From NCBI GenBank assembly GCA_048937405.1, contig JBHLNF010000006.1, positions 96,001 through 160,000 on the forward strand: a stretch of 64,000 nt of DNA, in the 5' to 3' direction. The stretch's first letter is position 1. Each line of letters begins with the position of its first letter. Below the pieces are notes generated by a model that was not told the DNA's origin, did not search any database, and worked only from the letters and a program-made list of their open reading frames with translations. The translations under genes and the position numbers were made by a program. Below are positions 48,154 through 49,357 of this stretch, one piece after another. The stretch comes from Promethearchaeota archaeon (GTDB lineage Archaea; Asgardarchaeota; Lokiarchaeia; Sigyniarchaeales; SOKP01).

Positions 48154-49029
48154 TTAAAAGGTTATTTTATGAGACATTTTAAATATATCTATAAAACTTG
48201 AGACATGTATTGGTGATTGGATACCATCTAATGTTTTAATTTCTTCATTAATAAACTTCCAAAGATCTTTTTCGTTTTTCGCAATAATTTTTACTAATAA
48301 ATTATGATCTCCTGTAGAGGACGCAACCAATTGTATTTCATCATATTTTGAGAGTTTTTTAGCGGTATTGTCAGATTTCAACGGATCTACAGAAAGACCC
48401 AGAATGGCTATTGAATTATACCCCACTTTAAAAGGATCCACAAATGTATCAAATTTCTTTATGATACCCTCTTTTACCATATTTTGTACTCGATTATGTA
48501 TAGTACTGGCAGCTAAATTCACTTTTTTACTTAGATCTTTATAAGAGATTTTATAATTTTCTTGTAGAAAATTAAGAATTTCTTTATCTTTTTCATCGAA
48601 TATCGCTCTAGGAGTTTTTTCTATTATCTTTTCAGTTTCACTTTTATGTCTTTCAATAGCATATGTAATCGCTCGTGTTAAACTTCCTTCATTTAATTCA
48701 TCCTTTACGATATAGTCTTGAGCTCCTTTTTGAAGAGTTTTTAGTGCAAAGTCCTTATCATCTAATCCAGTTAAAACAATTATAGGAATAGTGCTACTAT
48801 TGTTTAAAACATTTTCTAGAGTATTTTCTCTATCACTATCTGGTAAGGTTAAATCTAACAAAATAATATCAAAATCTTTGGACCTAAGACGATTCATACC
48901 TTCAGAAAGTCTAGGTTTAGAATCTAAATCGAATTTAAAGTCTTCAGAGGTTTTCAGTAATTCTTCAATAAGACGTACATCAGCTTTATTATCTTCAATT
49001 AAGAGAATTTCAATCTTGTCTTTCCCTAT
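48154..49029 (-). CDS. Response-regulator receiver::Lrp/AsnC fusion; ATA start
   Basis: Upstream extension KDKIEILLIEDNKAD completes the REC domain (LLDLTLPD, VLTG, DYIVK); AsnC HTH DEKDKEIL...LAASTIHNRV and RAM domain STGDHNL. Confidence 0.88.
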   Translation of the reverse strand: MGKDKIEILLIEDNKADVRLIEELLKTSEDFKFDLDSKPRLSEGMNRLRSKDFDIILLDLTLPDSDRENTLENVLNNSSTIPIIVLTGLDDKDFALKTLQKGAQDYIVKDELNEGSLTRAITYAIERHKSETEKIIEKTPRAIFDEKDKEILNFLQENYKISYKDLSKKVNLAASTIHNRVQNMVKEGIIKKFDTFVDPFKVGYNSIAILGLSVDPLKSDNTAKKLSKYDEIQLVASSTGDHNLLVKIIAKNEKDLWKFINEEIKTLDGIQSPIHVSSFIDIFKMSHKITF

Positions 49030-49357
49030 TTTTATTCACCAGAGAACAATTTTTTATGATTAACAGAAATAATTTTTTTAAATGCAAATTCCTTATTCTG
49101 AATAATATTCATTCATCTATTTATATTTATTTCTAACAAATTAAAAATCTATCGAATAAAATCTTACTTTATTAATTAATATTATAATTAAATTCTTATT
49201 CGATAAAATATATTTTATGTTGAATATTATTCTTAATAAATAAGAATAATTTATATTTTTATAAAAAAAAACATTTAGTGTTAAGTCTAATTTTTTAATT
49301 TTAAGGATATTTAATTAATATCTCTAAAAAAATCAAAAAAAAATCATATAATTAGAT

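Follow-up and report, generated by a model that had tools for sequence, protein, structure and literature searches.

AUU, AUA and AUC are legal but rare start codons in NCBI table 11, and common gene callers assume that genes start at ATG, GTG or TTG. The classic case is infC, where the AUU start causes IF3 to limit its own synthesis. Translation of eukaryotic eIF1 is autoregulated via a weak start context, and mitochondrial AUA and AUU starts are read by a modified tRNA-Met, in which f5C34 pairs with A, U or C. In the bacterial infC system, the factor discriminating against AUH codons (H being A, U or C) is itself initiated at AUU (PMC4705826). For Asgard archaea, we found no systematic report of non-AUG, near-cognate or alternative starts in the literature searched; the nearest case was a single inferred 'rare ATT start codon' in AtubA, from a Heimdallarchaeial (Kariarchaeaceae) metagenome-assembled genome (PMC13394414). 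Here, we describe the start site of a REC-Lrp/AsnC response regulator gene, encoded on the minus strand of a 64,000-nucleotide (nt) stretch of DNA (hereafter, the window) from a Promethearchaeota archaeon, an Asgard member of the Lokiarchaeia (contig JBHLNF010000006.1, positions 96,001 to 160,000), which lies on contig 19 (C19) of a 4.47-Mb assembly with 29% GC (G000). Based on the sequence comparisons described below, the regulator is likely (probability of about 0.8) to be translated from the AUA codon at position 49029, by an ordinary initiator Met-tRNA (Met-tRNAi) positioned by a Shine-Dalgarno (SD) sequence, as part of a genus-wide use of ATA, ATT and ATC (together, ATH) as starts beside ATG, GTG and TTG (together, NTG).

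The present case resembles infC in that an AUH codon lies behind an SD sequence and in that a fidelity factor has an AUU start, here aIF1 with its conserved ATT. In bacteria, such starts concern a handful of genes per genome, whereas here roughly one in two genes with a strong SD sequence is concerned, an estimated 60-130 genes in total, and the factor is aIF1 (SUI1 fold) and not IF3. The likeness to eukaryotes lies in aIF1 being the homologue of eIF1 and in a set of one-mismatch codons from which AAG and AGG are excluded, as among eukaryotic near-cognates; however, eukaryotes rely on scanning and on the Kozak context, while SD pairing provides the positioning here and it is the start codon of aIF1 that is weak. 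AtubA is likewise an Asgard gene in which the first β-strand precedes the annotated Met and an ATT is plausibly spaced from a ribosome binding site, but it is one gene of another Asgard class, mentioned in a methods section, with no claim on frequency, conservation or aIF1. In mitochondria, AUA and AUU are regular starts read by tRNA-Met (PMC11775629), but most mRNAs there lack a leader and AUA encodes Met, whereas AUA is an ordinary Ile codon within the genes studied here and the starts are SD-dependent. The regulator shares its three-domain architecture with other REC-HTH_24-AsnC_trans_reg proteins and is unusual only in its start codon.

Start site and conservation of the regulator gene

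The coding sequence (CDS) of the regulator (48154..49029, minus strand) comprises 291 codons and a stop codon at 48154-48156. On the minus strand, its start region reads ...TCTCT GGTGA ATAAAA ATA GGG AAA GAC AAG ATT GAA ATT CTC TTA ATT GAA GAT AAT..., ending with the codons for ILLIEDN. The SD core GGTGA (49036..49040) is followed by the 6-nt spacer ATAAAA (49030..49035) and by the proposed initiation codon ATA (49027..49029), at a spacing that corresponds to the genome-wide optimum. The in-frame stop upstream of the regulator is the TGA at 49038-49036, contained within GGTGA itself, and neither ATG, GTG nor TTG is present among the sense codons between this stop and ILLIEDN (ATA AAA ATA GGG AAA GAC AAG ATT GAA). 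This codon reading agrees with the initial annotation of the window, which had described the frame as closed by the TGA of GGTGA and free of NTG before ILLIEDN. A TAA is located further upstream, five sense codons before the TGA of the SD sequence. Read-through of this TGA from an upstream start was ruled out by the TAA and by the upstream sequence, which showed no coding conservation. Moreover, no same-strand open reading frame (ORF) ends at the regulator's SD sequence at this locus, and the site is therefore considered a primary initiation site rather than a coupled restart. The predicted N-terminus of the regulator, from ATA 49029, is (M)GKDKIEILLIEDNK.

The protein was characterized, from the N- to the C-terminus, by the presence of a REC domain (residues 8-118; 48676..49008; Pfam PF00072 Response_reg, 61 bits for a cut-off of 30.2, profile positions 1-107 of 111), a winged helix-turn-helix (wHTH) of the HTH_24/HTH_AsnC type (residues 145-191; 48457..48597; PF13412, 57.8 bits; PF13404, 45.7 bits) and an Lrp/AsnC ligand-binding domain (RAM, AsnC_trans_reg; residues 212-272; 48214..48396; PF01037, 38.3 bits; PF22482, 31.5 bits), all encoded on the minus strand. 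The N-terminal wHTH and C-terminal RAM domain, with PF13412, PF13404 and PF01037 all above their cut-offs, place it in the Lrp/AsnC family. The key residues of the receiver could be read in the translation, namely E12-D13 (IEDN), the phospho-acceptor Asp (DIILLDL), the Thr (IIVLTG) and the Lys (YIVKD).

The first canonical start is the ATG at codon 45 (48895..48897, minus strand), 44 codons downstream of the ATA. Starting there gives the longest ORF under ATG/GTG/TTG rules, a 247-amino-acid (aa) protein with a truncated receiver behind a 44-codon untranslated leader. However, profile positions 1-40 of REC lie upstream of ATG 48897, and β1, the E12-D13 pocket and approximately the first 40% of the domain would therefore be lost, in line with the initial observation that the first strand of the receiver and its acidic pocket precede the called ATG. 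A CheY-like receiver lacking β1 and the acidic pocket is not expected to fold or to be phosphorylated. Moreover, the 44 upstream codons are open and show protein-level conservation via synonymous changes among 24 orthologues, only 5 of which retain the Met of codon 45. A start at this ATG is therefore very improbable.

These orthologues were taken from 13 genomes of the same genus and from named contigs of relatives, and correspond to 24 distinct DNA sequences; the 13 same-genus proteins shared 68-81% identity over regulator residues 1-4 to 291. The codon aligned to ATA 49029 was ATA in 17 sequences, ATC in 4 and ATG in 3 (L006, L025 and L036). GGTG was found at the same spacing in all 21 orthologues with an ATH codon, and a weakened TGTGA in two of the three with ATG. 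The ILLIEDNKADVRLIEELL stretch was almost invariant, while its codons varied (ATT CTC TTA, ATC CTA TTG or ATT CTC CTG), as would be expected of a translated sequence. Overall, the site displays what characterizes an SD-dependent AUH start: coding conservation upstream of every NTG, an SD sequence spaced as in canonical starts, and an ATG in some orthologues.

This conservation rules out an error of sequencing, a recent decay of the gene and a start at the internal ATG. The ATA could have been an error of sequencing or assembly, or a recent start loss in a decaying gene, as one transition is enough to turn ATG into ATA and is favoured by AT-biased mutation at 29% GC. However, 21 of 24 independent assemblies, among them that of a closed genome, had ATH at this codon, and the regulator ORF is intact, with REC, HTH and RAM all above Pfam cut-offs, which makes the probability of such an artefact practically negligible.

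Public databases contained 592 relatives of the regulator at E <= 1e-20. Among the 120 matches listed (P0001-P0120), every source name giving a lineage belonged to an Asgard group, and proteins bore the names 'response regulator' or 'Lrp family regulator/CheY-like'. Gene calls for this family differed in their N-terminus, of which at least five versions were in use (MEKK.., MEDN.., V/MRLIEELL.., MNILLIEDN.. and MNSLKK..), the MEKK.. calls corresponding to the codon located 6 nt past the SD sequence and the MEDN.. calls to an internal ATT. The former position was used in 42 of the matches listed and the latter in 12, including the window's own protein (P0001), while the phospho-acceptor pocket was missing from the calls of 24. 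ATH starts thus already occur in some NCBI calls, although they are not applied consistently. The public call for the gene in the window is 10 residues short, giving a 281-aa protein (MEDNKADV...) starting at the in-frame ATT at codon 11 (48997..48999, minus strand).

This public call represents another explanation, in which translation starts at an internal in-frame ATT (49014, 49008 or 48999). An ATT preceding GAA GAT AAT underlies the 12 MEDN.. calls, and near-cognate starts in this genome are ATT as often as ATA. However, the internal ATT codons are located 21-36 nt from the SD sequence, while ATH enrichment was only observed 6-8 nt past GGTG (see below), and a start at 48999, which has no SD sequence at the right spacing, would cut off β1 (ILLI), nearly invariant in the 24 orthologues. 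Furthermore, the three ATG orthologues have their ATG exactly at the ATA position, where the 42 public proteins mentioned above already start. An internal ATT start therefore appears distinctly unlikely, and initiation at ATA 49029 is retained.

ATH starts across the genome and in related genomes

To describe start codon usage in the whole genome, we used the triplet located 6 nt past every GGTGA and recorded those followed by at least 100 open codons. The background is minimal at this position because the SD sequence's own TGA closes the frame. Among start-type triplets, open frames were headed by ATG (19 out of 70), GTG (4/25), TTG (12/69), ATA (15/113), ATT (16/190) and ATC (3/87), whereas control triplets rarely did so (AAA, 4/223; AAT, 1/188; TAT, 0/168; TTT, 2/185; TTA, 0/97; GAA, 0/71). 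In total, ATH headed 34 open frames out of 390 sites, versus 35 for NTG, and was significantly enriched relative to the controls (7/932; odds ratio 12.6, p = 8e-13).

Among the 76 ORFs whose frame was closed by the SD sequence's own TGA, the third codon was NTG in 29, ATH in 28, CTG in 2 and ACG in 1, and most of the remaining ORFs had an NTG one codon away. When counts were anchored on GGTG, an ATH excess was only observed at spacings of 6-8 nt, coinciding with the NTG peak, while AAG and AGG showed none. High-confidence ATG starts were preceded by the same GGTGA, ending at -7; only approximately 18% of them had even a 4-nt SD sequence and 5% had GGTG, which agrees with the reported rarity of SD sites in Lokiarchaea (PMC7531240, PMC12993045). 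The background-corrected ATH:NTG ratio, obtained by a rough subtraction using A/T-rich control triplets, was about 0.06 for SD runs of 4 nt, 0.22 for 5 nt and 0.63 for at least 6 nt, i.e., weak start codons accompany strong SD sequences. The summed ATH excess amounted to approximately 60-130 genes. Genes with a strong SD sequence form a small minority of the total, and roughly one in two of them is headed by ATH.

N-termini without any NTG were also counted. Of the 3,248 ORFs with 150 codons or more, 136 began with at least 35 NTG-free codons, versus about 28 expected from an exponential fit to shorter leaders, and an SD sequence with an ATH codon was present in 55 of these 136. Among N-terminal REC domains, 5 out of 21 had no NTG between the upstream stop and β1, with GGTG 7-8 nt before an ATA in 3 of the 5. 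These counts, together with the SD-length trend and the 24 orthologues, bear out the proposal that AUH initiation is routine behind a strong SD sequence in this lineage. Translational coupling or reinitiation was considered as a general explanation and rejected: a same-strand ORF ended within 40 nt upstream of 23% of the ATH sites, compared with 37% of the SD-led NTG sites and 17% of the non-SD ATG sites.

The same GGTGA-N6 class was counted in related genomes, as tallies 6-8 nt past GGTG were too noisy on 0.4-Mb samples. In a closed genome of the same genus (G006, 0.8 Mb sampled), 8 ATH and 7 NTG starts were found, while the small samples from other families gave 3 ATH versus 8 NTG in a closed genome (G032, 0.8 Mb), in which ATT starts were present, and 0-1 ATH versus 3 NTG in G038 (0.4 Mb). 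In a relative with 53.5% GC (G033), chance ORFs were so numerous that the count was uninformative. Within the limits of these small samples, ATH starts are commonest in this genus and rarer elsewhere in the order. When orthologue pairs between G006 and the present genome were compared, the start class was kept in 5 out of 6 ATH genes and in 3 out of 4 NTG genes, and the sole switch from ATH to ATG coincided with a degraded SD sequence. This retention, along with the counts across genomes, indicates that ATH starts are old and maintained.

Other receivers were observed outside the window. Two N-terminal receivers (C19:216014-216349 and C17:201650-201982, both on the minus strand) had no NTG before β1 and no GGTG at 6-8 nt; one exhibited GGGGTTGA-N9-ATT, similar to the leader of aIF1 described below, and the other a TGAGGG directly before ATA. 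In addition, three tandem paralogous receivers on the plus strand (C13:166300-166632, C13:168627-168956 and C13:171347-171679) shared AAAAGGTGG-N6-ATA/ATT. A TTG was present one codon earlier in two of them, too close to the SD sequence, and a TTA at that place in the third; this set looks like a natural experiment on start codon choice.

Initiation machinery and proposed mode of initiation

The 3' end of 16S rRNA in a congener is ...GGATCACCTCC, or ...GGAUCACCUCC in a longer reading, and contains UCACC, so that GGUGA pairs with it. A motif search identified one initiator tRNA gene, on contig C3, with A1:U72, the GGG/CCC anticodon stem and a CAT anticodon. This gene (C3, minus strand, ~10337-10520) apparently contains three introns, one following position 37/38, another in the variable/T-arm region and the third within the T-loop. 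The genome search found no initiator-like sequence with a GGG/CCC stem and a TAT or GAT anticodon.

Among the initiation factors, aIF1A and aIF2 alpha, beta and gamma start at ATG. In contrast, a conserved ATT start was observed for aIF1 in each of the 21 same-genus genomes that could be read, with the leader GGTTGTGA-N9-ATT, and the CxxC...CxC zinc knuckle of aIF1 was located after this ATT and upstream of any NTG in the same 21 genomes. The predicted N-terminus from this ATT is (M)KDDDICAICSFPK. In an alignment with the solved aIF1 of M. jannaschii (4MO0), it begins opposite residue 3, and the entire protein could be aligned, with no obvious loss seen. In the other families sampled, aIF1 started at TTG (3), GTG (2), ATG (2) and probably ATA (1). 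In a genome from another family of the order (G030, L081 ~1420-1470), the first CxxC of aIF1 was found before any NTG (TGA AAA AAC ATA CCA AAA GAC TCG ATT TGT CCA AAA TGC), and a near-cognate aIF1 start may thus have had more than one origin within the order.

The aIF2-gamma frame, located outside the window (C28 ~197580-199123, plus strand), encodes 515 aa, of which about 100 precede the GTPase domain. These N-terminal residues resemble helix-hairpin-helix repeats (ELTEIAGIGKATADKM..., VKGVGKATAEKY), an unusual extension for aIF2-gamma.

Based on these data, we propose that GGUGA pairs with UCACC at the 3' end of 16S rRNA, which would set AUA 49029 in the P site; there, despite the third-position mismatch, it would be accepted by the ordinary initiator Met-tRNA with its CAU anticodon. 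The resulting regulator would have Met first and a complete receiver domain. Initiation at AUA is probably less efficient than at AUG and sensitive to aIF1. Across the genus, ATA, ATT and ATC, with a few CTG and ACG, would serve as the starts of strong-SD genes, a weaker codon being combined with a stronger SD sequence, and the level of aIF1, itself produced from ATT, could act as a set-point for near-cognate start use.

Decoding of the ATA might also be non-standard, with a modified C34 on the initiator tRNA or a second initiator-like tRNA. The non-NTG starts are mostly third-position variants (ATA, ATT and ATC), the mitochondrial AUA and AUU starts (PMC11775629) offer a precedent, and the intron-rich tRNA genes are poorly detected, leaving an incomplete inventory. 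However, only one initiator-type gene was found, with a CAT anticodon, and no tRNA-like sequence combining a GGG/CCC stem with TAT or GAT. Furthermore, CTG and ACG were observed 6-8 nt past the SD sequence at approximately the per-triplet rate of ATA (small counts), while AAG and AGG were not, which argues for a general near-cognate tolerance and not for an expanded wobble, and the strong dependence on SD length is the expectation for a weak codon-anticodon pair. We therefore regard non-standard decoding as unlikely and favour decoding by the ordinary Met-tRNAi.

Several points weigh against this account. The anti-SD sequence was taken from a congener, as the assembly under study has no 16S gene, and the tRNA inventory of this intron-rich genome is incomplete (ARAGORN identified 7 tRNAs in an intron-free search and 21 once introns were permitted; Rfam, 20), so that a second, unusual initiator may have escaped detection. 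The subtraction behind the SD-length trend is rough, and the samples from other families are small (3 versus 8 and 0-1 versus 3). The weakened SD sequences of ATG orthologues hint at a compensation between SD sequence and start codon, but this is based on two possibly related sequences. Among ABC ATPases, no forced start was found in an N-terminal-domain test on ABC_tran (0 out of 42). This test is insensitive, because the 20-30 residues before the domain nearly always hold some NTG; its result implies that ATH starts represent only a few percent of all genes. Finally, while the data show the position of the start, its conservation, the genome-wide statistics, the canonical initiator tRNA and the ATT of aIF1, the decoding by Met-tRNAi, with Met as the first residue, the lower efficiency relative to AUG and any feedback by aIF1 are inferred.

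The aIF1 of S. solfataricus has been reported to reject an mRNA with an AUU start (PMC4705826; PMC6237735). With the conserved ATT of aIF1 in the genus, the arrangement therefore mirrors that of bacterial infC, and by this analogy aIF1 may exert feedback on its own start codon. The initial annotation had inferred a relaxed start codon selection by way of aIF1/aIF2, for which the canonical initiator tRNA, the aIF1 without obvious loss and the ATG starts of aIF1A and aIF2 give no clear backing. The conserved ATT suggests a tuned, possibly self-regulated stringency, rather than a simply relaxed one. More tentatively, the near-cognate starts could form a translational regulon set by the concentration of aIF1, the AUU-started aIF1 providing a homeostatic stringency circuit; if true, graded non-AUG use would predate scanning.

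If a few percent of Lokiarchaeial genes do start at ATH, systematic truncations would affect the protein sets behind Asgard phylogenomics, structure prediction and the cloning of genes for expression, with regulators and aIF1 itself among the genes affected by NTG-only calling. In a lineage next to eukaryotes, frequent near-cognate starts that are coupled to SD strength, with an eIF1 homologue under AUU, would also offer a testable handle on the evolution of start stringency.

Other candidate starts in the window and neighbouring genes

A second forced case was identified in the window, with the motif GGTGA-TTTGGT-ATA (21998..22011, minus strand) upstream of a DUF134 gene (CDS ~21581-22000), in which the next NTG is located 39 codons downstream. 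From ATA 22000, the DUF134 domain covers residues 2-93 (Pfam profile positions 5-96 of 98). The initial annotation had stressed the GGTGA-N6-ATAGGG context shared by two ATA starts. The two forced ATA cases stand, while the likeness of their ATAGGG seems to be a coincidence, as no preference for G at +4 was seen, by eye, in the other ATH starts.

Four additional candidates had been put forward as supporting cases, and all were confirmed to have an SD context, although only one of them comes close to being forced. This is the USP gene at ATA 47689, with GAGGTGG-TAAAA-ATA (N5; 47676..47691, plus strand), where the sole nearby NTG is a GTG inside the SD sequence and the next one is located 117 codons downstream; its Usp domain covers residues 2-149 (Pfam profile positions 2-141 of 141). 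The other three are plausible but not forced, because their Pfam domains are intact from a nearby NTG. In feoA (14186), GGTGA-AAATAA-ATC (14184..14197, minus strand) is followed by an NTG at codon 18, with the FeoA domain from residue 23. The Mrp/NUBPL ATPase gene (19045) exhibits GGTGT-AAGATT-ATT (19043..19056, minus strand), with NTG codons 9 codons upstream and 22 codons downstream of ATT 19045 and the ParA/NUBPL domain from residue 36. The Fe-S gene (PF04060 and Fer4; 2463) exhibits GGTGT-TTTTGA-ATT (2450..2465, plus strand), with an ATG at codon 6 and the domain from residue 13. Overall, an ORF of 80 codons or more begins at 7 sites located 7 nt past GGTG in the window, and ATH was found at 5 of them.

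In the vicinity of the regulator, a divergent ORF (49358..50431, plus strand) was read as a histidine kinase from its translation alone. An ORF encoding a single-domain receiver is also present (50444..50890, plus strand; PF00072 match at C19:146474-146836). Approximately 2 kb upstream of the regulator, a 204-aa open frame contains a paralogue of its AsnC half only (50983-51417, minus strand), with 50% identity to residues 144-288. Such an AsnC-half neighbour recurs beside the REC-AsnC gene in at least nine relatives, and the cluster is thus a conserved one.

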